This document shows, piece after piece, positions 20,115 through 31,180 of a stretch of 64,000 bases of DNA. Origin of the DNA: Dehalococcoidia bacterium (GTDB lineage: Bacteria > Chloroflexota > Dehalococcoidia > UBA2979). Made by a program: the position numbers and the translations under genes. The notes beneath the pieces are model-generated. The model was given only the letters and a program-made list of their open reading frames with translations, had not been told where the DNA came from and made no database searches. The DNA is taken from NCBI GenBank assembly GCA_965262725.1, contig OZ253555.1, forward strand, positions 2,951,838-3,015,837. The letters run 5' to 3'. Numbering within the stretch: position 1 is the first letter of the stretch; each line of letters starts with the position of its first letter.

Positions 20115-20213
20115 ACTTCGCCAAGGTCATTGAGCCACCCCTCCGGGGGGTCTGACCACTCGGGCCGCCGGTACGGCCACCATCGCCTGCATCCCCAGCG
20201 GAGGGGAGCAGCG

Positions 20214-21794
20214 ATGGCCTACCGGGAGGTACACGGGGTGGAGATCCAGGAGATCATTCGTCGCTGGCAGGCGGGGCTCAGCCAGCGCCGCATCGCCAGC
20301 GGGATGGGGTTGTCGCGTCAGACGGTCCGCCGCTACATCGACGCGGCCGAAGCGGCCGGCCTCACACCTGACGGTCCCGAGCCGAGTGAGGAGCAGCTCG
20401 CCGCGCTGGCGACGCTGAGCCTCTCCGGCCCGCGGCAGGTCGAGGCGCCGAGCGAGGAGCTGCTCTCGCCCTGGGCGGAGCAGATCGAGCGCTGGCTTGA
20501 GACCGACCGCCTGCAACTGACGCGCATCCAGGAGCTCCTCGCCGGACGAGGCTGCGAGGTCTCCTACACCACGCTGCGGCGTTTCATCCGGCGCCGCGGC
20601 TGGCGCCACCGGCTGCCGTCGACCGTGCGCATGGACGACGGGCCGCCGGGCGAGGTGGCGGAGATGGACTTCGGCCGCCTCGGCTTCATCCGGGACCCCG
20701 AGAGCGGCCGCCGGCGCGCGGTGTGGGCGCTGGTCGTCGTCTGGCGCTACTCACGCCACTGCTTTGTGTGGCCCACCACCAGCCAGAAGCTGGACGCTGT
20801 GATCGAGGGCCTGGAGGAGGCCTGGGCCTTCTTCGGGGGAGTGCCCCGCTACCTCGTCATCGATAACTTCCCGGCCGCCGTCGCCGGGGCCGACGCGCTG
20901 CACCCGCGCTTCACGCGGGGCTTCCTCGAGTACGCCCGCCACCGCGGCTTCATCACCGACCCCGCGCGCGTGCGTCATCCCCGCGACAAGCCGCGCGTCG
21001 AGCGCAGCATCCCCTACGTGCGCGAGCGCCTCTTCAAGGGCGGCGACTTCCGGGACGTCGTCGACCTGCGCTCCGCCGCCCGCAGCTGGTGCCTGGAGGT
21101 GGCGGGACAGCGCATCCACGGCACGACACGCCGGCGCCCGCTCGAGGTCTTCCGGGAGGAGGAGCTCCCTCTCCTCGCTCCCTGGGACGGCGAGCCCTAC
21201 GAGGTCCCCGACTGGCGGACCGCCACGGTCCATCCCGACCACCACATCGCCTGCCAGTACGCGCTGTACTCGGTGCCGTCCACGGCCTGCCCGCCCCGCC
21301 AGAAGGTCGAGGTGCAGCTCGGCTCGAAGCTGGTGCGCATCTACCACCGCGGTCAGCTCATCAAGGTCCACCCGCGCCAGCGCCGGGGCGGCCGGGCCAC
21401 CGACCCGAACGACTACCCGGCCGAGCTCACCCCCTACACCAGGCGGGCGCCCGACTGGATACAGCGCCGCGCCGCCGAGCTGGGGGAGGCCGTGGGCGCC
21501 TACGCCGAGCGTCTCTTCGAGGGCTCCCTGCCCTGGGCGAAGCTGCGGCAGGGCCACAAGCTGCTGCGCCTCGCCGAGCGCTACTCCCCGGACCGCCTCG
21601 ACGCCGCCTGCCGCCGCGCGCTCGAGGTCGACCTCATCGACGTGCGCCGCCTCGAGCGCATCCTCGTCGAGGCCCTCGACCAGGAGAGCACCCCAGACCA
21701 GCCCGAGCTGCCGCCGCCTCCGGGGCGCTTCGCCCACTCGGGCTCCGTCTTCGCACAGTCCCGCACGCAGACCCCGACAGGAGCACCACGATGA
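20214..21794 (+). CDS. istA: IS21-family transposase
   Basis: Internal ATG of ORF 20130..21794 (MAYREVHGVEIQEIIRRWQAGLSQRRIA...). N-terminal HTH and DDE integrase core. Confidence 0.9.
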   Translation: MAYREVHGVEIQEIIRRWQAGLSQRRIASGMGLSRQTVRRYIDAAEAAGLTPDGPEPSEEQLAALATLSLSGPRQVEAPSEELLSPWAEQIERWLETDRLQLTRIQELLAGRGCEVSYTTLRRFIRRRGWRHRLPSTVRMDDGPPGEVAEMDFGRLGFIRDPESGRRRAVWALVVVWRYSRHCFVWPTTSQKLDAVIEGLEEAWAFFGGVPRYLVIDNFPAAVAGADALHPRFTRGFLEYARHRGFITDPARVRHPRDKPRVERSIPYVRERLFKGGDFRDVVDLRSAARSWCLEVAGQRIHGTTRRRPLEVFREEELPLLAPWDGEPYEVPDWRTATVHPDHHIACQYALYSVPSTACPPRQKVEVQLGSKLVRIYHRGQLIKVHPRQRRGGRATDPNDYPAELTPYTRRAPDWIQRRAAELGEAVGAYAERLFEGSLPWAKLRQGHKLLRLAERYSPDRLDAACRRALEVDLIDVRRLERILVEALDQESTPDQPELPPPPGRFAHSGSVFAQSRTQTPTGAPR

Positions 21795-22564
21795 CCGCCA
21801 CCACCTCAGACCTCCGTCCGCTGCTCAAGCGCCTCAAGCTCGGCCGTATGCTCGACACCCTGCCCGAGCGCATCGCCCTCGCGCGGCGCGACCACCTCGA
21901 CTACGCGGACTTCCTGCAGATCCTGCTCGTCGACGAGGTGAGCCGCCGCGACCACGGGCGGTTGGAGCTGCGCCTGCGCCAGGCCGGCTTCGAGCAGCTC
22001 TGCCGCCTCGAGGACTTCGACTGGGCGGCCGCCATCCGGCTCGACCGCCGCCTGCTCGACGCCGCCTTCTCGCTGCACTTCCTCGATCGCCGCGAGCACG
22101 TCCTGCTCGTCGGCCCCGTCGGCGTCGGCAAGAGCTTCTTAGCCCAGGCGCTCGGCTACTCAGCCGTCCGCTCCGGACGCAGCGTCCGCTTCGCCCCGGC
22201 CGACCACTACTTCCGCGAGATGGCGCAGGCCCGCGTCGACCACTCGGCCGAGAAGGTCTTTCGAAGCTTCCTCGCGCCCGACCTGCTCATCCTCGACGAC
22301 CTCGGGCTCCATCGCCTCAGCGCGCAGCAGTCCATCGACCTCTACGAGCTGGTCATCGGGCGCCACCGCAGCTCCAGCTTCGTCATCACCTCGAACCGCG
22401 CCGTAGAGGAATGGCTGGGTCTCTTCGACGACCCGATCCTCGGCAACAGCGCCCTCGACCGCCTCGCCAACGCCAGCTACCAGATCGTGATCGAGGGCGA
22501 TAGCTACCGCCAGCGGCTCTCGCCGCACCGCGCCCTGCTCGAGGCGCAGACGGGAGGTGATTGA
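21791..22564 (+). CDS. istB: IS21-family helper ATPase
   Basis: Walker A GPVGVGKSF and Walker B LLILDDLG; 257 aa. Confidence 0.9.
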   Translation: MTATTSDLRPLLKRLKLGRMLDTLPERIALARRDHLDYADFLQILLVDEVSRRDHGRLELRLRQAGFEQLCRLEDFDWAAAIRLDRRLLDAAFSLHFLDRREHVLLVGPVGVGKSFLAQALGYSAVRSGRSVRFAPADHYFREMAQARVDHSAEKVFRSFLAPDLLILDDLGLHRLSAQQSIDLYELVIGRHRSSSFVITSNRAVEEWLGLFDDPILGNSALDRLANASYQIVIEGDSYRQRLSPHRALLEAQTGGD

Positions 22565-22653
22565 CGCGCTAGTGTCCTGATTCGTAATAGCGACAGATAA
22601 CGGGTATGGTGGCACAGCGGGGTTTTGCCCCATGGGGCAGACTCTGGAGTGTC

Positions 22654-23706
22654 ATGAGCACCCGAATCGGACGGCCGACGGTCGCGATCGTCCTGAGCGA
22701 CGAGGAGCGTGAGACGCTGGAGCGGTGGGCGCGCCGGCCGACATCGGCCCAGGCGCTGGCGCTGCGCTGTCGCATCGTCCTGGCAGCGGCCGAGGGGACA
22801 TCGAATAAAGCGATCGCCGCGGCGCTCGATTGCCATCCGGTCACCGTCGGCAAGTGGCGCCGGCGCTTTGCGCAGGGGCGGCTCGATGGGCTACAGGATG
22901 AGCCGCGCCCCGGGGCGCCGCGCACGATCGCCGATGCACAGGTGGAAGCGGTGATCGTCACGACGCTGGAGGAGCAGCCTCCCAACGCGACGCACTGGTC
23001 GACCCGATCGATGGCAGCCGCGGTCGGGATGTCGCAGTCGGCGATCTTCAGGATCTGGCGCGCCTTCGGCCTGAAGCCGCACCTCGTGGAGAGCTTCAAG
23101 CTGTCGCCCGACCCGCAGTTCATCGACAAGGTGCGCGACGTGGCCGGGCTCTATCTCAACCCGCCCGACGCGGCGGTTGTGCTGTGCGTGGACGAGAAGA
23201 CCCAGATCCAGGCACTCGACCGCACCGCGCCGACGGTGCCGATGATGCCCGGCGTCCCCGCCCGCCAGACGCACGACTACATCCGTCACGGCACGACGAA
23301 CCTCTACGCGGCGCTCGATGTCGCCTCGGGATGCGTGATCACGGAGATGACCCCCCGGCACCGGGCTCGGGAGTTCCAGCAGTTCCTCGCCCTCATCGAC
23401 CAAAGCGTTCCCCGTGAGCTGGCGGTGCATGTCGTGCTCGACAACGTCTCCACGCACCGCACGCCCGCCATCCAGCGCTGGCTCCAGCGCCATCCCCGCT
23501 TCACCTTCCATTTCACGCCGACCTACAGCTCCTGGATGAACCTCGTGGAGCGCTGGTTTGCAGAGCTCACCAGCAAGTGGCTCCGGCGCGGCACGCACCA
23601 TAGCGTCCCTGATCTGATCCGCTCAGTGGAGATGTGGGTCGCCAGCTGGAACGAGAATCCGAGGCCCTTCATCTGGCACAAGTCCGCGGACCAGATCCTT
23701 GAGTAG
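22654..23706 (+). CDS. IS630-family (Tc1/mariner-like) transposase; the last ~16 native codons are displaced by the intron, and the current TAG stop lies inside the intron 3' end
   Basis: N-terminal HTH and DDE region (VLCVDEKTQIQAL...VVLDNVSTH). Removing 23703..26638 in silico restores ...ADQILDNLTGYLNRISNSGH* ending in the right IR. Confidence 0.85.
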   Translation: MSTRIGRPTVAIVLSDEERETLERWARRPTSAQALALRCRIVLAAAEGTSNKAIAAALDCHPVTVGKWRRRFAQGRLDGLQDEPRPGAPRTIADAQVEAVIVTTLEEQPPNATHWSTRSMAAAVGMSQSAIFRIWRAFGLKPHLVESFKLSPDPQFIDKVRDVAGLYLNPPDAAVVLCVDEKTQIQALDRTAPTVPMMPGVPARQTHDYIRHGTTNLYAALDVASGCVITEMTPRHRAREFQQFLALIDQSVPRELAVHVVLDNVSTHRTPAIQRWLQRHPRFTFHFTPTYSSWMNLVERWFAELTSKWLRRGTHHSVPDLIRSVEMWVASWNENPRPFIWHKSADQILE

Positions 23707-23866
23707 GGTCAGGGGCTGGCGCGGTGCGAGCCGTAGGCGGTGGCGCATATTGCCAGGCCGGTTTCCCGGTGGCGCCCATCTCCACAGCCGTAGCATCGTC
23801 CGTCTCCAGCCCCTGCCGCCTCGAACCGGACGTGAGGTTTTCCCTCATCCGGCTCACCGATGCCCT

Positions 23867-24660
23867 TCACCGGGCGGCATGCGGGGTGCCCCGCCACGGT
23901 CGATATGGCCGTGGTGCCACGACGCGCTGTCCAGCTAGCGAGATGAGCCCCAGACGGTCGGCGACGGGAAACGGGTGCCCGCGATGGCGTCGCCGCCAAC
24001 GCAACCGCTTCCCCAGCCAGAGTTTGAGTCTCCACATGGCAAACCAGTGCAGGACGTCGAACGCCCTCGCCGAGTTGCCGTAGCGGAAGTAGCTCATCCA
24101 GCCGCGGAGGTAGCGATTGACTTCCTCCACGACCTGCCGGGGACTCAGCAGCAGACGCAACCGCGCCGTGATTTCACGGATGCGGTCCCGCGCCCGCTGC
24201 ATCGCTCGCCGTGAGGGCCAGCGTGCGAGGAACTGGATATTCTTGTTGCGCTTCGCACGTACCCAGCGATGCTCGAAGCCGAGGAACTCCAGCCCCTCGC
24301 CTCCCTCCCGCAGGTGCACGATGCGCGTCTTCTCCGCCTTGAGCTCCAGTCCGAGCTCACCCAGCAGGTCACGCAGCAGGGCCAACGCCCGCTCCGCTTC
24401 CTCCCGGCTCCGGCAGAGCACCACGAGGTCATCCGCATAGCGCACCAGCACGCCATCACCCTTCGCCTCCCAGTCCCGGTCCAACCGGTGCAGGTAGACA
24501 TTGGCCAGCAGCGGGGACATCACCCCGCCCTGCGGCGTACCCGTCGCGCTGTGCTGCACGACCCCCGACTCCATCACACCGGCACGCAGCATCGCCCGTA
24601 CCAGCTTCAGGAGATTGCGGTCGCATATCCGTTCCTCGACGGCCGTCATCAGACGGTCGT
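23867..24660 (-). CDS. group II intron-encoded reverse transcriptase/maturase, 3' segment (RT domains 3-7 + X domain)
   Basis: HDRLMTAVEERICDRNLLKLV, SPLLANVYLHRLD, VRYADDLVVLC (YADD), X domain RYLRGWMSYFRYGNS. The N-terminal 70 aa of track ORF 23867..24853 are translated intron RNA. Confidence 0.85.
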
Positions 24661-25522
24661 GTAGGGTCAGGGGCTGGCGCGGTGCGAGCCGTAGGCGGTG
24701 GCGCATCAGTTCCAAGCCGGTTTCCCGGTGGTGCCCAACTCCACGGCCATAGCAGCGTCCGTCTCCAGCCCCTGCCACATCGAACCGGACGTGAGGTTCT
24801 CCCTCATCCGGCTCACCGATGCCCTTCACCAGATGGCATGCAGCGCTCCCCACAACGTGGGTCGTGCCTTGGCCAGCCGGTACAGCATGTGCGGAGAGCC
24901 TCGAACCCTACCAAGTGGTTGCTAGCCCCGAGGGGCACTCACCAGTCCACACCCCCAGCAACATGCACGGACAAAGTAGGGGTCCTTCCCATCACCGGCG
25001 GTTATGTTGTCCGTCCGGCTCCAGCGGTACTACGACCCCCTCCGCCACCCTTCCGGCTGGCTGTCCACTTCCCGGCTCTGACCGGTTATAGGACGCCTCG
25101 CTCCGACGCCCTCTCACAGGGTGCCGGGCCGGGGAGGGCTTCTCCGGTTCCCGTCGCTACCTTCCGTACGTTCCACGTCCCATACGCCGGGAGGTTTCTT
25201 GAGGCTGCATTCCAGGATCTTCACCTCGTCCATGGCCTTCGCCCTGACCACCCGGGCTCGGCTCCTCCTTGGTCCTGTCAATAGACAGGCGAGTCTCACG
25301 GCGCGGCAGACTTCGCGTCATGCTGCGGACCGCACGTTTGCTCCCCCTCATAGGGCTCTTGACGTCGGGCTTCGACGCAGACCGTTTCCCGTCCACGCCG
25401 CCGACCTGCTAACGGGCCTCCTGACAGTTACCCGTGCCGGACTCTCACCGGCTGGCAGCAACGAGCATGTCTCCGGACCGGTCACGTCATCACGTCACCA
25501 CCCCTTCGACTTCCGGACGCAC
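24661..25522 (-). mobile_element. nested ORF-less group II intron (about 862 bp; 5' GTGCG ... 3' CCCTAC) inside the RT gene of the outer intron
   Basis: About 90% identical to the outer intron's domains I-III and V-VI. Removing it in silico rejoins ...FESIP|HDRLMTAVEE..., the canonical RT domain-3 sequence. Confidence 0.75.
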
Positions 25523-26087
25523 GCGGTATCGACTCGAAACACGAGGCGATGTCCGTCTCCACTACCCACCGCCTGCCCCGCCACGCCTCGTCAATGAGGA
25601 CCTGCAGGGCGTCATGGGCCGAACGCTTCGGGCGGAAGCCGAAGCTGCATGGCAGGAAGTCGGCCTCGAAGACCGGCTCCGTCACGAGCTTCAGCGACGC
25701 CTGCACGATGCGGTCGCGGACCGAAGGAATCGAGAGCGGGCGCTCTTCCGACCGACCGGGCTTGGGTATCCAGACCCGGCGGCTCGGCTGCACCCGGTAT
25801 CTTCCCTCCTTCAGTTCCGTGGCCAGTTCATCCAGCAGGCGCTCCACGCCGTAGCGCTCGACCTCGGCGAGCGTGACGCCGTCGATACCGGCTGCGCCGC
25901 GATTGCGACGCACCTGCTCCCACGCGCGCTCCAGAATGTCTCTGCGATAAACCTTGTCGTAGAGCGCATGAAAGCGTCTATTGGGGTCGGCCTTGGCCGC
26001 CCGGTAAAGCGTGCGTTGTAGTGTTCGGACCTTGTCTTGGATGGAGTTAGCCGCTTGGGCACTCACCGATTCATCCCTACTCCCCAC
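25523..26087 (-). CDS. group II intron-encoded reverse transcriptase/maturase, 5' segment (RT domains 0-3), interrupted after FESIP by the nested intron
   Basis: KVRTLQRTLYRAAKADPNRRFHALYDKVYRRDILERAWEQVRRNRGAAGIDGVT...RRVWIPKPGRSEERPLSIPSVRDRIVQ...FRPKRSAHDAL. Confidence 0.85.
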
Positions 26088-26830
26088 GCGTGAGCAAAGC
26101 AGGGGTCCTTCCCATCACCGGCGGTTGTGTTGTCCGTCCGGCTCAAGCGGTACTACGACCCCCTCCGTCACCCTTCCGGCTAGCTGCCCACTTCCCGGCT
26201 TTGACCGGTTATAGGGCACCTCGCTCCGACACCATCTCGCAGGGTGCCGGGCCGGGGAGGGCTTCTCCCGTTCCCGTCGCTACCTTCCAAACGTTCCACG
26301 CCCCTTACGCCGGGAGGTTCCTTGAGGCTGCAGCGCAACGCGCATTCAGGATCTTCACCTCGTCCATGGCCTTCGCCCTGAATTGCCGGGCTCGGCTCCT
26401 CCACTATCCGTTAACGACGCGGCAGGCTTCGCTTGATGCTGCGGACCGCCTGGTTGCTCCCCCTGATAGGGCTCTTGACGTCGGGCTTCGACGTGGACCG
26501 TTTCCCGTCCGCGCCGCCGACCTGCTAACGGGCCTCCTGACAGTTACCCGTGCCGGACTCGCACCGGCTGGCAACGACGAGCATGTCTCCAGACCGGTTA
26601 CGTCATCACGTCACCCGCCCTTCGACTTCGGGACACACCAACCTCACCGGATATCTCAATCGCATTTCCAATTCAGGACACTAGCAGGGTGCTGAAGAAG
26701 CTCCTTCCGGGGGCCTCGGAGCGGTGCCGGGCGGCTTGAGAGGCCACGTCCGGCTTCGTGATCGCCGTCTCCTGACCTGCCCCCGGCGGCCTCGGAGGGC
26801 TCCTGGACCGGCCGTAGGGCGCAGTGCGCC

Positions 26831-27538
26831 CTACGCCGTGGCAGCCTCGAGCCTGGCCATGCGCACCAGGTTGTAGGCGGCGGCGGTGAGCTCCAGCCAG
26901 CAGCGGTTGCGCTCGCGGCCCACGAAGCGCAGCTTGCGCCCGCCGCCCACGGTCTTCATCCAGCCGAAGACCTGCTCCACGATCGTGCGTCGCTTCTGAC
27001 TCTGCCTGTAGCCGCGATGCCGCGTGGTGCGCCCGTCCACGGCGCTGCGGCGGCGGCGATCGTGCTGCGCCACGCCGCGCCCGCGCAGTTCCGCCACGAA
27101 GTCGCGCGTGTCGTAGCCGCGGTCGGCGCCCAGCGTCCCGCAGCCGCTCACGCTGCGCTCCAGCATCGTGACCGCCGCCTCGCGCTCGGCGTACCCGTTC
27201 GCCTCGGTCAGCTCCAGGTCCAGCACCAGACCATGACGGTTCTCGGTGAGCAGGTGGCCCATGTAGCTCAGTCTCGCCGTCTGCCCCGACCCTTTCGTGT
27301 ACAGCCGCGCCTGCGGGTCCGTGCCGGAACTATGCGTATCGCGGCGGCGGCGCCGCCCCCGGAAGTCGACCTCCGGGTTGCGCCCGCCCGGGGGTGTCCT
27401 GCTCGTCGCGCGGGCGGTAGCTCTTGAGCGAGGCCCAGGCCTCCAGCAGCGTCCCGTCCACGGTGAAGTGGTCGGCGGAGAGCAGCCGACGCCGCCTGGC
27501 CTCGGCCACCACCTCGGCGAAGAAGGCGCGCGCGACAT
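26831..27538 (-). CDS. IS5/IS1182-family transposase, C-terminal DDE ORF in a different frame (frameshifted or programmed)
   Basis: DPQARLYTKGSGQTARLSYMGHLLTENRHGLVLD...GADRGYD...RTIVEQVFGWMKTVGGGRKLRF. Confidence 0.75.
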   Translation of the reverse strand: MSRAPSSPRWWPRPGGVGCSPPTTSPWTGRCWRPGPRSRATARATSRTPPGGRNPEVDFRGRRRRRDTHSSGTDPQARLYTKGSGQTARLSYMGHLLTENRHGLVLDLELTEANGYAEREAAVTMLERSVSGCGTLGADRGYDTRDFVAELRGRGVAQHDRRRRSAVDGRTTRHRGYRQSQKRRTIVEQVFGWMKTVGGGRKLRFVGRERNRCWLELTAAAYNLVRMARLEAATA

Positions 27539-27893
27539 CGGCAGCGAGCAGGCGCTCGCGATTCTTCGAGAAGCTGGAGGCGTCGAACGGCTCGTCTGAG
27601 ATGTTGAGGTCGAGGAACCACTTGAACAGCAGGTCGTAGCGCAGCCGCTCGCAGAACTGGCGCTCGCTGCGGATCGAGTAGAGCGCGATCAGCAGGCTCG
27701 CCTTGAGCAGGTGCTCGGGCGGGATCGAGGGCCGGCCGCTCTTGCTGTACATCGTGCCGAACAGCGGTGAGAGCCGCTGCAGCGCGGAATCGACGATCGG
27801 TTTGATGCGGCGGATCGGGTGGTCGTCCGGGATGAAGGCGTCCGGCGTCACCGCCAGCAACATGTTGGTCTGACGCTCAGCGTCGCCTCGCAT
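27330..27893 (-). CDS. IS5/IS1182-family transposase, N-terminal ORF (DUF772-like); the frame breaks near a C/G homopolymer
   Basis: FIPDDHPIRRIKPIVDSALQRLSPLFGTMYSKSGRPSIPPEHLLKASLL...KSYRPRDEQD. Confidence 0.75.
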   Translation of the reverse strand: MRGDAERQTNMLLAVTPDAFIPDDHPIRRIKPIVDSALQRLSPLFGTMYSKSGRPSIPPEHLLKASLLIALYSIRSERQFCERLRYDLLFKWFLDLNISDEPFDASSFSKNRERLLAADVARAFFAEVVAEARRRRLLSADHFTVDGTLLEAWASLKSYRPRDEQDTPGRAQPGGRLPGAAPPPRYA

Positions 27894-27965
27894 GGGGCGC
27901 CTCCAGGCTACGCCCCCGCCGCCTTCGCTATCCTGCCAGACGGCTGACCCTTTTTCAGCACCCTG

Positions 27966-28814
27966 CTAGCGGTCGACCGCGGCGGCAATCGCGCGGTTGG
28001 TGAAGACCCGCGTCATCGACCGCCGGTACGCCTCCGAGCCAGCCAGATCCGCATTGATGTCCCCCAGAGCGTCGGCCGCCTCGGAGGCGGCCGCTATCGT
28101 GTCGGCGTCTAGCACCGAGCCGGCCAGCGCCTGCTCGACCGCCCCGAGCCGCTGCGCGTGCGTCGAGGCGCCCGTCACCGCTACGCGGGCACGTGTGCAG
28201 ACGCCGTTCTCGACGGTCAGCGAGGCAGCCACTCCGACGATCGCGAAGTGTGAGGCGGGGTGGCGGAGCTTCGCATACGCCGCCTGCGTCGGGGCGTCGA
28301 AGCTCACCGACGTGATCAGTTCGTCCTCCCCGAGATCGACTTCGAAGAGCCCGCTGAAGAAGTCCCCGGCGCCGACCGCGCGCTCGCCGGCAGCACCGAC
28401 GATGTGGATCGTCGCGCCAAGCGCGACGGCGATGGCCGGCAGATCGGCCGCCGGGTCGGCGTGCGCCAGGCTGCCGCCGATCGTGCCGCGGTTGCGCACC
28501 TGCTGGTCTCCGATCTCGCTTGCCGCCTCGGCGACGACGGGAGCGGACGCAAGGAGCACCGGGTCGGACTCCAACTCGGCATGCGTGGTGAGGGCGCCGA
28601 TCGAGATGCGCCCTCCGTCCTCGCTGACCCCGGAGAGCCCGGGGATTCGACTGATGTCGATCAGTGAAGTCGGCTCGGCGAGGCGCAGCTTCATCAGCGG
28701 GATCAGGCTGTGCCCCCCCGTGATGAAGCGAGCGTCGCCCCGGGCCTGCTGCTTGAGTGCGATCGCCTCCTCGACGGAGCCGGCGCGGTGGTACTCGAAC
28801 GCTGAGGGGATCAT
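27966..28814 (-). CDS. coxM: molybdenum-hydroxylase (CO dehydrogenase-like) medium FAD-binding subunit
   Basis: Internal ATG MIPSAFEYHRAGSVEEAIALKQQARGDARFITGGHSLIP. The stop codon TAG is formed by the CTAG bordering the IS1182-like element. Confidence 0.85.
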   Translation of the reverse strand: MIPSAFEYHRAGSVEEAIALKQQARGDARFITGGHSLIPLMKLRLAEPTSLIDISRIPGLSGVSEDGGRISIGALTTHAELESDPVLLASAPVVAEAASEIGDQQVRNRGTIGGSLAHADPAADLPAIAVALGATIHIVGAAGERAVGAGDFFSGLFEVDLGEDELITSVSFDAPTQAAYAKLRHPASHFAIVGVAASLTVENGVCTRARVAVTGASTHAQRLGAVEQALAGSVLDADTIAAASEAADALGDINADLAGSEAYRRSMTRVFTNRAIAAAVDR

Positions 28815-31180
28815 GCGGCGCCTCCATGAATCAGGCGCCAGAGCTTCTCCGGGCGCAGCATCATGTCGATGTGTTCCACGCCGAGCCCACTGAGGGCGTC
28901 GACGGCGGCGTTGACGATGCTGGGTGTGGACCCGATCGTGCCGGCCTCGCCGATACCCTTTACCCCCAGCGGGTTGAGTGGAGAGGGCGTAACGGTGTGG
29001 TCCAGCTCGAAGCGCGGCAGATCGCGCGCCCGCGGGATCGCGTAGTCCATGAACGAGGCCGTCAGGAGCTGGCCGCTCTCCTCGTCGTACACCGCCTCCT
29101 CGATCATCGCCTGGCCGACGCCCTGCGCGATTCCGCCGTGGATCTGGCCGGCGACGATCAGCGGGTTCACGACGTTGCCACAATCGTCCACGCCGACGAA
29201 GCGCTGAAGTTCGAGCTCCCCGGTGTCGCGGTCGATCTCCACCTGAGAGATGTAGCAGCCGAAGGGCCACGTGAAGCCCTCGGGCTCCCAGAACGCCTCC
29301 TCGCTCAGGCCCGGCTCGGTGTCCGGCGGCAGCGGGATCGGGACGTAGGCGAACGCTGCCACGTCCGCGAAGGCGACGCCGGTTTCCTCCCGCCCGGTGG
29401 GGCCGATCATCCCGTCCTTGAAGGAGAGATCGGAGGGCTGCAGCTCCAGCATCGGAGCGGCGAAGCGGCGCATCTTCTCCTGCACCTTCGACGCTGCGAG
29501 GAGTAGGGCCGTGCCGCCCACGACCTGAGAGCGGCTTCCGAAGGTGCCCGTGCCGCCGCGTACCTGCCCCGTGTCGCCGTGGACAATGACGATGTCGTCC
29601 ATCGGGATGCTGAACTCATCGGCGACCATCTGCGCGAACGTCGTCTCGTGGCCCTGGCCGTGCGAGGAGACGCCGGTCGTCGCCCGCACCTTGCCGTCGC
29701 GCTCCACGCTCACGCTCGCGTGCTCCCAGAGCCCCACCGTCGGCATTGCCGCCGAGGGACCGAAGCCGCAGATCTCGGTGTAGAAGGAGAGCCCGAGGCC
29801 GACCAGGCGCCCTTCCGCACGGGCCGCGTCGCGGTCCGCCTTCATCTGCTCCCAGTCGGCGTTCGCGAGCGCCATGTCAAGCGCGCGCTCGTACTCGCCG
29901 GAGTCGTAGACCATCCCGCCCGCGGTTGTGTACGGGAACTGGTCCGGCTGGATGAAGTTGCGCCGGCGGACCTCCGCCGGGTCCATCCCCAGCTTGGCCG
30001 CGAGCATGTCGATCCCGCGCTCGAGGAAGTAGATGCCCTCCGGACGTCCGGCTCCGCGGTAGGCGTCGGTCGGCATCTTGTTCGTGAAGACCTCGGTCAG
30101 GTCGCAGCGCACGACGCCGATGTCGTAGACACCGCTGATCATGAACGCGACCAGCGTGGGGATGGCGGCGGTGAGCACCATCTCGTAGGCGCCGATGTCG
30201 GCCACGAGCCGCATCTTCACGCCCAGGACCTTGCCCTCGGCGGTCGCCGCCAGATCGAGGTAGCAGATCACGTCGCGGCCATGGATCGTTGTCATGAACG
30301 CCTCGGAGCGATCCTCGATCCACTTGACCGGCAGGCCGAGCCGGCGCGAGATCGCCGCCGCGACAAAATCCTCCCCGTAGACGTTGATCTTGCTGCCGAA
30401 GCCTCCGCCCACGTCGGGTGCGATCACGCGCACCTGGTGCTGGCCCATCCCGAGGATCGCCGCGAGCAGCGTGCGTGCGATGTGCGGATTCTGGGTCGTC
30501 GACCAGACTGTCAGCTCGTCGTTGCCCGGCTCGAAGCGCGCGATCACGCCGCGCGGCTCCATCGCGTTGGGGACCAGACGCTGGCTGACCATGCGCTGCG
30601 AGACGACCACGTCCGCCTGCTCGAACGCGTCGTTGAGCGCCGACTCGTCCTCGATCTCGAGCGTCACCGGGTTGACGCCGGTTCCGGCCGGGGCCAGCGG
30701 CACGGCGAGATTGTTCTCGAACGCCTCGTGGATGACGGCCGGCTCGCCGTTCATCGCCCTCTCGGGGTTGACCACGGCGGGCAGTTCCTCGATCTCGACG
30801 ACGATCGCGTCGGCGGCGTCGGTCGCGGCGTAGCGGTCACTCGCCACCACGACGGCAACCGGCTCCCCTACATAGCGGACGCGGTCCGGCGTGACGGAGT
30901 GGTGGTCCGGCGCCGGGAACGGCGTGGCGACGGGCATCGGCGGGATCATCTCGGCGAGCTGAGCGCCGGTGAGGACCAGCTCGACGCCGGGCATCGCCTC
31001 GGCCGCGCTCGTGTCGATGGAGCGGATGATCCCGTGTGCCACGTCGCTGCGCTTGAAAGCGAGGTGCAGCATGCCCGGCAGCTTCATGTCGTCGACGTAG
31101 TTTCCCCGGCCCTTCACCAGGCGTGGGTCCTCGCGACGGCGAACGCGCTGCCCGACGAGCTTGCCGGGGGTCGCCTGCAT
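28811..31180 (-). CDS. coxL: molybdenum-hydroxylase large subunit, form II CoxL-like (AYRGAGR active-site loop)
   Basis: Internal ATG MQATPGKLVGQRVRRREDPRLVKGRGNYVDD; PTDAYRGAGRPEG motif; 789 aa. Confidence 0.85.
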   Translation of the reverse strand: MQATPGKLVGQRVRRREDPRLVKGRGNYVDDMKLPGMLHLAFKRSDVAHGIIRSIDTSAAEAMPGVELVLTGAQLAEMIPPMPVATPFPAPDHHSVTPDRVRYVGEPVAVVVASDRYAATDAADAIVVEIEELPAVVNPERAMNGEPAVIHEAFENNLAVPLAPAGTGVNPVTLEIEDESALNDAFEQADVVVSQRMVSQRLVPNAMEPRGVIARFEPGNDELTVWSTTQNPHIARTLLAAILGMGQHQVRVIAPDVGGGFGSKINVYGEDFVAAAISRRLGLPVKWIEDRSEAFMTTIHGRDVICYLDLAATAEGKVLGVKMRLVADIGAYEMVLTAAIPTLVAFMISGVYDIGVVRCDLTEVFTNKMPTDAYRGAGRPEGIYFLERGIDMLAAKLGMDPAEVRRRNFIQPDQFPYTTAGGMVYDSGEYERALDMALANADWEQMKADRDAARAEGRLVGLGLSFYTEICGFGPSAAMPTVGLWEHASVSVERDGKVRATTGVSSHGQGHETTFAQMVADEFSIPMDDIVIVHGDTGQVRGGTGTFGSRSQVVGGTALLLAASKVQEKMRRFAAPMLELQPSDLSFKDGMIGPTGREETGVAFADVAAFAYVPIPLPPDTEPGLSEEAFWEPEGFTWPFGCYISQVEIDRDTGELELQRFVGVDDCGNVVNPLIVAGQIHGGIAQGVGQAMIEEAVYDEESGQLLTASFMDYAIPRARDLPRFELDHTVTPSPLNPLGVKGIGEAGTIGSTPSIVNAAVDALSGLGVEHIDMMLRPEKLWRLIHGGAA

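Follow-up and report, generated by a model that had tools for sequence, protein, structure and literature searches.

In Thermosynechococcus elongatus, TeI3 (F3) group II introns that lack an open reading frame (ORF) reside inside the intron-encoded protein (IEP) ORF of TeI4 (F1) introns (Mohr, Ghanem and Lambowitz 2010, PMC2882425); identical inner introns occupy diverged outer ones there, and mobilisation of the ORF-less intron by the IEP of a sibling has been shown experimentally (PMC2882425). Nested group II introns have also been described in Methanosarcina acetivorans (Dai and Zimmerly 2003, as summarised in PMC4424553), and for the Tery_4732 twintron of Trichodesmium erythraeum reverse-transcription PCR revealed sequential splicing, inner intron first (Pfreundt and Hess 2015, PMC4649490). 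RmInt1 of Sinorhizobium meliloti, an endonuclease-less class D intron, is carried by the insertion sequence (IS) ISRm2011-2 (PMC4238363, PMC8914252). Here we describe a group II twintron (that is, one group II intron nested in another) in a 64,000-nt stretch of DNA from a Dehalococcoidia bacterium (assembly GCA_965262725.1, contig OZ253555.1, positions 2,951,838 to 3,015,837; hereafter, the window), in which an ORF-less inner intron lies in reverse-transcriptase (RT) motif 3 of the IEP gene of an outer intron, and the outer intron in turn lies in the transposase gene of an IS630-family element. This arrangement is already known in bacteria and Methanosarcina, T. elongatus being the closest precedent, and the present case is unusually well replicated. 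We suggest, with a probability of roughly 85%, that the twintron arose from two successive RNA-guided insertions.

The outer element, including the inner intron, occupies 2,936 nt of the minus strand (26638..23703), of which 2,074 nt are the outer intron's own sequence. Its parts, with the evidence for each in brackets, are as follows.

23703..26638, minus strand: whole twintron, that is, outer group II intron plus nested inner intron (boundaries GTGTG...CCCTAC, empty IS630 sites, uninterrupted copies)
24661..25522, minus strand: inner ORF-less group II intron, 862 nt (boundaries GTGCG...CCCTAC, RF02003 and domain V/VI match, near-identical copies elsewhere)
26095..26638, minus strand: outer domains I–III (RF02003 at 93.7 bits; 87% alignment to the inner copy)
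25523..26066, minus strand: IEP coding part 1, with GTG start at 26066 and RT motifs 0–3 (reading frame, protein match)
23867..24660, minus strand: IEP coding part 2, with RT motifs 4–7 including YADD, the maturase/X domain and the stop codon (frame and profile matches)
24842..24971, minus strand: inner domain IV relic (pairwise comparison, frame relic)
24782..24814, minus strand: inner domain V (AGC triad, 2-nt bulge, GAGAA loop)
24661..24781, minus strand: inner domain VI, long (fold; bulged A at 24667)
23823..23855, minus strand: outer domain V (RF00029, fold)
23703..23822, minus strand: outer domain VI, long (fold; bulged A at 23709)

An earlier, sequence-only reading of the window had proposed an intron within an intron within an IS630 element, and its coordinates and boundary sequences (GTGTG or GTGCG at the 5′ end and CCCTAC at the 3′ end) read exactly as it gave them. 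The '~90%' identity that it assigned to the two copies of the intron scaffold, together with their positions, agrees with pairwise alignments of 87% (inner 1–551 versus outer 1–544) and 92% (inner 682–862 versus outer 1895–2074, in outer numbering with the inner intron removed). The Rfam model RF02003 (group-II-D1D4-4; gathering score, 49 bits) matches both copies on the minus strand (inner, 25454..25318 at 102.8 bits; outer, 26570..26434 at 93.7 bits), and RF00029 (domains V/VI; gathering score, 40 bits) matches the outer copy at 41.5 bits. The terminal motifs, GUGUG or GUGCG at the 5′ end and CCCUAC at the 3′ end, fit the group II pattern (5′ GUGYG, 3′ AY), and the bulged branch-point A of domain VI lies at −7 from the 3′ end in both copies (23709 and 24667). 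Domain V of both copies reads GAGCCGGAUGAGG-GA(A/G)AA-CCUCACGUCCGGUUC and folds with the AGC catalytic triad and the 2-nt bulge; this 33-nt element occurs exactly twice in the 64-kb window and never in shuffles of it. In the 130-nt domain IV of the inner copy, the old start region (GTG AGT GCC) is kept, ~1.2 kb of ORF is deleted and a decayed in-frame N-terminal trace (LYRLAKARP versus LYRAAKADP) is left, so that the inner copy is indeed without an ORF, as had been stated. An exact search for domain V among GTDB representative genomes returned 28 loci, all of them distant relatives (Acidimicrobiia, Chloroflexia and archaeal metagenome-assembled genomes); the identical 33-mer is seen in introns of archaeal metagenome-assembled genomes (Halobacteria, ANME-1, Methanotrichaceae), Acidimicrobiia and Chloroflexia (for example, L008, L009, L010 and L028).

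Exact excision of the complete inner intron restores the outer intron sequence, which is what defines a twintron. When the inner intron is removed in silico, the frame ...DIASCFESIP is joined to HDRLMTAVEERICD... (HDRLMTAV...), and the predicted ligated junction is GTCGATACCGC^ACGACCGTCTG, that is, ...GATACCGC^ACGACCG (here and below, ^ marks the insertion point). With the GTG at 26066 as its start, the resulting protein has 445 amino acids; it scores 408 bits with TIGR04416 (cut-off, 300), also matches RVT_1 and GIIM, and has the YADD motif; a profile search detected no endonuclease domain in it. The restoration of the RT domain, previously deduced by hand, thus yields a natural protein: the restored IEP is 100% identical to P0123, which is encoded without interruption on six other contigs. 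Unspliced, the frame runs into the inner intron and terminates after 13 extra residues (tail RASGSRRGGDVMT), and a truncated 194-amino-acid product is recorded on three other contigs. Seven uninterrupted outer copies (L001 and L034–L039) are 99.3–99.95% identical (1–15 differences per 2,074 nt) to the window outer intron with the inner intron removed, and their alignment with the window breaks at 25523/24660, exactly at the ends of the inner intron. The nearest cultured relatives of the IEP belong to Streptomyces and Rhodococcus plasmid introns (64–67% protein identity), and relatives of the mobile elements hint, if weakly, at Actinomycetota; a split match in Streptomyces chartreusis (H7), considered as a cultured twintron, was rejected because it represents two adjacent RT genes.

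The two scaffold copies differ by ~10% and carry different exon-binding sequences, each fitting its own flank, and nucleotide-exact removal of the inner copy restores the RT frame; the locus is therefore not a tandem duplication, one of the outcomes that the sequence-only reading had named as fatal to its proposal. Judged by these comparisons, the inner element is an ORF-deletion derivative of a sibling intron ~10% diverged and not a duplicate of the outer intron. The window and most of the comparison contigs are apparently metagenome assemblies, in which repeats are prone to misassembly, and an assembly artefact or duplication of a single intron could be imagined on that ground. The same junctions, however, recur in contigs of five other assemblies (ERZ25067170, ERZ25071132, ERZ23495189, ERZ25068833 and ERZ25067264), the copies are ~10% different with specific changes in the exon-binding sequences, and both levels of nesting can be undone with single-nucleotide precision, which leaves such an artefact hardly credible.

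The insertion site of the outer intron is defined equally closely. The element that carries it comprises the following features.

22570..26683, plus strand: IS630-family element, including the flanking TA pair (inverted repeat, NF033545, homologues)
22654–23702 and 26639–26684, plus strand: IS630 transposase coding sequence, split by the antisense twintron
Around 22570–22593 and 26660–26683: IS630 inverted repeats (26-nt inverted repeat)

In silico removal of the outer intron yields an IS630 transposase of 364 amino acids with the C-terminal sequence ...ADQILDNLTGYLNRISNSGH; its TAG stop (26682–26684) lies inside the right inverted repeat, and the protein matches NF033545 (270.8 bits) and DDE_3. 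The C-terminus predicted from the letters alone is upheld by natural 364-amino-acid homologues, which are 96% identical and share the same C-terminal end, and by five empty IS630 sites in other contigs (L040–L044), where GATATCCGGCGAGGTTG^TCAAGGATCTGG is uninterrupted, confirming the outer boundaries. The IS630 flanks read C-TA...TA-G (that is, a TA duplication at CTAG), and similarity to other loci ends at 22569 and 26684. The outer intron and the transposase gene are on opposite strands, an orientation previously left unstated; being antisense, the intron could not be spliced out of the transposase messenger RNA, and as a result of its insertion one Glu stands in place of the last 15 transposase residues. 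Eight loci carry a window-type outer intron at this same IS630 site, and there is one ectopic site (L037) that has the core pairing in common.

At the inner level, eight related introns have the RT3 target (...TTCGAGTCGATACCGC^ACGACC...) empty, and in four it is filled at the same nucleotide (first locus set). Copies and empty sites, which the sequence-only reading had recommended seeking in the rest of the genome, were found on other contigs for both levels, and altogether there are six other twintrons in which the same inner intron (99.9–100% identical) is found at the same site of outer introns that are 82–99.9% identical to that of the window.

L032: inner intron 861/862 identical; outer intron 99.9% over 2,132 nt aligned
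L031: inner intron 862/862; outer intron 96%
L033: inner intron 862/862; outer intron 91%
L048: inner intron 862/862; outer intron 88–90%
L047: inner intron 862/862; outer intron 85–87%
L046: inner intron 721/722, then cut by another insertion; outer intron 82%

The readthrough tail RASGSRRGGDVMT that marks the insertion also follows at least four other N-terminal IEP types, and the L031 and L047 twintrons lie ~90 kb apart on one 1.5-Mb contig. In L046, L047 and L048, both flanks are 10–18% different from the window right up to the insertion site, with the inner intron identical; the L047 site differs at −2 and +2 (...ACCCC^AT...), both changes being synonymous, and that of L048 at +2. Identical inner copies in diverged outer introns, with flanks diverging up to the junctions, argue for recent independent insertions, a line of reasoning also applied to Thermosynechococcus (PMC2882425), and the pattern suggests that the inner intron has homed repeatedly, and recently, to one conserved coding site. 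The seven near-identical inner copies stand at cognate sites, and intact IEP genes are present in the same metagenome samples (co-occurrence by sample, not by genome); sample ERZ25071132, for example, holds intact copies with an identical IEP as well as twintron L032. Scans of JGI metagenomes for the ORF-less architecture (the end of domain III, then 148–178 nt, then domain V) and for a hairpin specific to the inner intron found nothing, and an exact look-up of the 45-amino-acid ORF called inside the inner intron, made in search of solo inner copies, returned no record. In L032 (11560–12640), lower-GC sequence breaks into the twintron in its turn, 154 nt downstream of the inner intron, which makes a third layer of nesting; this insert resembles an IS110-type element region of L002.

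The twintron of L032, 99.9% identical and at the same IS630 site in a different genomic context, is what would be expected if an existing twintron had moved as one unit, either through unspliced composite RNA retrohoming into IS630 or through transposition of an IS630 that carried the twintron; composite mobility is listed as a possible route in PMC2882425. Against this, most IS630-borne outer copies are uninterrupted (L001, L034–L036, L038 and L039), and the data give no order of events. We regard movement as a unit as a somewhat unlikely origin of the window locus, albeit the one we take most seriously after that of two successive insertions.

The choice of both sites is mirrored in domain I, in which an alignment of three lineages shows that differences cluster in two short hot spots. 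The first is a hairpin loop that behaves as exon-binding sequence 1 (EBS1): its first 4–5 nt pair with the last 4–5 nt of the intron's own upstream flank (that is, intron-binding sequence 1, IBS1). The second provides helices of 5–6 bp between EBS2 and IBS2 in four lineages (window outer, window inner, L046 and L047).

26381..26385, minus strand: outer EBS1 CAAUU, pairing with IBS1 GGUUG (26639–26643)
25247..25251, minus strand: inner EBS1 GUGGU, pairing with IBS1 ACCGC (25523–25527) in the IEP gene
L031: EBS1 loop GCGA, upstream flank end UCGC
L046: EBS1 loop ACCC, upstream flank end GGGU
L047: EBS1 loop GGAAU, upstream flank end GUUCC
L048: EBS1 loop GGGAU, upstream flank end AUCCC
L018: EBS1 loop UCCC, upstream flank end GGGA
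26405..26410, minus strand: outer EBS2 CGGAUA in the second hot spot, pairing with IBS2 UAUCCG (26648–26653, −15..−10) as the best 6-bp helix
25290..25295, minus strand: inner EBS2 candidate GACUCG, pairing with CGAGUC (25531–25536, −14..−9) in a 6-bp helix
L046: EBS2 GAGUC, IBS2 GACUC
L047: EBS2 GAGAA, IBS2 UUCUC

All seven matched lineages give 4–5 contiguous EBS1 pairs counted from −1, and mismatched combinations reach four pairs in 2 of 42 cases; the seven-lineage table is a ready targeting rule for this intron subgroup. The inner EBS2 candidate is followed by the inner-specific hairpin CCUGUC-UAUU-GACAGG, and a 7-bp pairing (UAUUGAC/GUCGAUA) is an alternative for the inner EBS2. Thermodynamic folding of domain I did not place EBS1 and EBS2 in loops; we judged it uninformative for a ribozyme of this size and used the comparative evidence. 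A further loop of 11 nt in domain I (window 25328–25339 in the inner copy and ~26444–26455 in the outer) differs between the copies (ACGU versus CCAG). That of the inner copy could pair with 8 nt spanning the junction of the ligated exons (ACCGC^ACG), and that of L031 with 6 nt in the same register, which may be coincidence or a lineage-specific extra contact. A general role of this loop (outer positions 184–195) as EBS3 or δ was rejected, as the window outer intron and L047 do not fit.

On the basis of these sites, the first step can be envisioned as the entry of an endonuclease-less, RT/maturase-encoding outer intron into the site to which it usually homes, on the antisense strand and 46 nt in from the right IS630 end; it would have recognised this site through pairing of EBS1 CAAUU with GGUUG and of EBS2 CGGAUA with UAUCCG. 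Subsequently, an 862-nt derivative of a ~10% diverged sibling would have entered the RT motif 3 DNA (...FESIP^HDRL...) of the outer IEP gene, having lost ~1.2 kb of ORF and with its exon-binding sequences changed to GUGGU and GACUCG, which fit the target coding sequence. As the IEP has no endonuclease domain, both insertions presumably followed the replication-fork route (in which the intron reverse splices into the DNA that replication forks expose, and nascent strands serve as primers); in endonuclease-less introns, synthesis of the complementary strand is primed at replication forks (PMC4424553, PMC8914252). Unable to make protein, the inner intron most likely owes its splicing and mobilisation to IEP that uninterrupted family members provide in trans. 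The window twintron would yield IEP only after the inner intron has been spliced from the outer intron RNA; the earlier expectation that translation of the outer IEP requires this splicing holds for this copy, although the IEP itself may come from intact copies with an identical protein. Such copies occur in the same metagenome samples, which makes provision in trans the simpler route. The inner intron thus looks like a parasite of its own intron family, and probably depends on protein from intact copies.

Several observations weigh against the proposal of two successive insertions, or at least against parts of it. The covariance-model scan that the sequence-only reading had asked for bore it out for D1D4 in both copies and for domain V/VI in the outer copy, and did not quite do so for domain V/VI of the inner copy, which, at 37.5 bits, narrowly misses the 40-bit gathering score (local-scan E 4.8e-5). 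Domain V usually measures 34 nt and is capped by a GNRA tetraloop; in both copies here it has 33 nt and a 5-nt loop (GAAAA or GAGAA). EBS2 could not be assigned in three further lineages in which it was sought (L031/L002, L048 and L018), and a search of domain I for EBS3 found none. Within the 64-kb window no intact copy of the intron was found, and an intact IEP gene in the same cell as the window twintron would be deduced from co-occurrence in samples only. Finally, mosaic outer introns and the chimeric locus L033 indicate that some of the spread may reflect homologous recombination rather than homing.

Recombination has evidently left traces in this family. The IEPs are visibly mosaic (for example, P0127, P0128 and P0134), and L033 (1–2636; compare window 23703–26335) is a chimeric twintron that is 99.8% window-type upstream of the inner intron and continues downstream into ~25% diverged DNA, where the C-terminal half of its IEP is 100% identical to P0022/P0023; the switch falls within 8 nt of the inner 3′ junction. 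Moreover, the 5′ half of the IEP gene is spanned by a block of 590 nt (outer positions 560–1152; window ~26079–25523 and 24660–24625) that shows only 2 differences from the L031/L002 lineage, even though the two lineages differ by ~5% in domains I–III and by 5–10% downstream; the block ends 37 nt beyond the insertion site, even in the uninterrupted L002, and suggests past recombination. The mosaic IEPs, the L033 switch and the near-identical block upstream of the site in two otherwise different lineages would all suit a single inner insertion, later passed between outer copies through gene conversion or homologous recombination of their very similar IEP genes, with no repeated retrohoming. Such tracts would, however, have had to end exactly at both intron ends each time, given the 10–18% diverged flanks of L046–L048 and the synonymous differences at −2 and +2 of the L047 site, and the fit of both the inner EBS1 and EBS2 to the site is what reverse splicing predicts. 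We consider spread of this kind improbable as the general explanation.

The L033 switch near the 3′ junction and the 560–1152 block common to two otherwise diverged lineages also hint that the inner insertion was sometimes accompanied by one-sided co-conversion of the 5′ exon, whereby the upstream sequence of the recipient outer intron would be replaced by that of the donor. Co-conversion of the 5′ exon is known for the yeast mitochondrial introns aI1 and aI2; to our knowledge, it is not known for bacterial introns. If it occurred, a nested intron would homogenise the 5′ halves of IEP genes across lineages. An obligatory form can be rejected, as the P0022-type and other twintrons (L046–L048) keep their own 5′ halves (third protein search). 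With such twintrons in existence, the simpler and most likely reading of L033 is that two twintrons crossed over within their identical inner introns, and we hold occasional co-conversion to be more improbable still than spread by gene conversion.

Whether or not recombination contributed, the window twintron could be a dead end in which the inner intron is not removed in vivo, the outer IEP is inactivated and both introns are decaying fossils. The twintron lies antisense in a broken IS within a pile-up of ISs, so that there would be no selection for splicing; bacterial group II introns often splice poorly, with RmInt1 giving less than 1% ligated exons (PMC4238363); and the L032 and L046 twintrons have been hit again by other insertions. 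Nevertheless, only 1–15 of the 2,074 positions in the window outer intron differ from intact copies, the inner intron has identical counterparts elsewhere and all catalytic landmarks are intact, a pattern that fits a very recent event rather than decay and that speaks to age, not to activity at this locus. On balance, we find a dead end rather unlikely, a little more so than movement of the twintron as a unit.

The surroundings of the twintron are themselves crowded with mobile elements, two of which adjoin the IS630 element.

26684..27966, minus strand: IS5-like element with DUF772 and DDE_Tnp_1 in two frames (inverted repeat, Pfam), outside the twintron
20130..22564, plus strand: IS21-type istA/istB genes (Pfam rve, Mu-transpos_C_2 and IstB_IS21)

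The IS630 and IS5-like elements have one CTAG target in common, which reads C-TA (22570–71)-[IS630, 22572–26681]-TA (26682–83)-[IS5-like, 26684–27966]-TA (27967–68)-G; this layout fits the insertion of one IS into the TA duplicated by the other. The pile-up is flanked by the IS21 istB gene (stop at 22562–22564) and by the stop of a CO-dehydrogenase/xanthine-dehydrogenase FAD subunit gene (27966–29270, minus strand). The IS5-like transposase (26831–27893) is split into two overlapping frames (DUF772, 27330–27893; DDE_Tnp_1, 26831–27538), and would be either a frameshifted pseudogene or a case of programmed frameshifting. Elsewhere, L039:1–1428 holds head-to-tail IS630 copies, the left end of one abutting the right end of the next, intron-bearing one. 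In L034, L035 and L038, the IS630 sequence left around the intact outer intron amounts to no more than 46 nt at one end and 89 nt at the other; the common break, equivalent to window 23614, suggests that a unit of truncated IS630 and intron was copied to several places.

In summary, the locus leaves the current understanding of group II introns unchanged and adds a well-documented natural case of an intron parasitising its own family, in which one 862-nt ORF-less element is recently placed in the same coding site of at least five N-terminal IEP types and at least six outer variants overall. As each inner insertion switches off the protein of that copy unless the inner intron is spliced, the family offers a simple system for studying the splicing and mobilisation in trans of an ORF-less intron, and for testing whether such introns hold down the copy number of their relatives.

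Compared with described systems, the window twintron shares most with T. elongatus: in both, a full-length intron has an ORF-less deletion derivative of its own family lodged in its IEP gene, the outer introns have diverged around identical inner copies, some family members target an IS, and intact members supply the IEP in trans (experimentally there; by deduction from sequence here). The two differ in what the insertion does to the outer protein, as TeI3 lies between the first two ATG codons and the outer IEP remains translatable from the second ATG without splicing, whereas the window insertion splits RT motif 3, so that no IEP would be made unless the inner intron is spliced. They differ also in host, a thermophilic cyanobacterium there as opposed to uncultured high-GC bacteria from metagenomes, known from sequence alone, for the present relatives. 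In M. acetivorans, going by the same summary, both ORF-less and ORF-containing introns home site-specifically into related introns, and a family thereby supplies its own perpetual homing sites, as here; the arrays described there are nested up to five deep and lack coding flanking exons, whereas in the window a single intron is nested in the other and both sit within an IS630 transposase gene. RmInt1, on which fork-coupled retrohoming without cleavage of the second strand is modelled, is likewise an endonuclease-less RT/maturase intron with a natural homing site in the transposase region of an IS630-family element. It lies in sense orientation, so that its splicing controls transposase expression, and forms no twintron, in contrast to the antisense window intron; the traits in common with class D (RmInt1-like) introns are the absence of an endonuclease domain and the IS630 target only, and imply no class placement. 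Tery_4732 is, like the window locus, a bacterial group II twintron, yet it lies in a conserved host protein-coding gene, where splicing is selected for, whereas the window twintron lies antisense in a mobile element.

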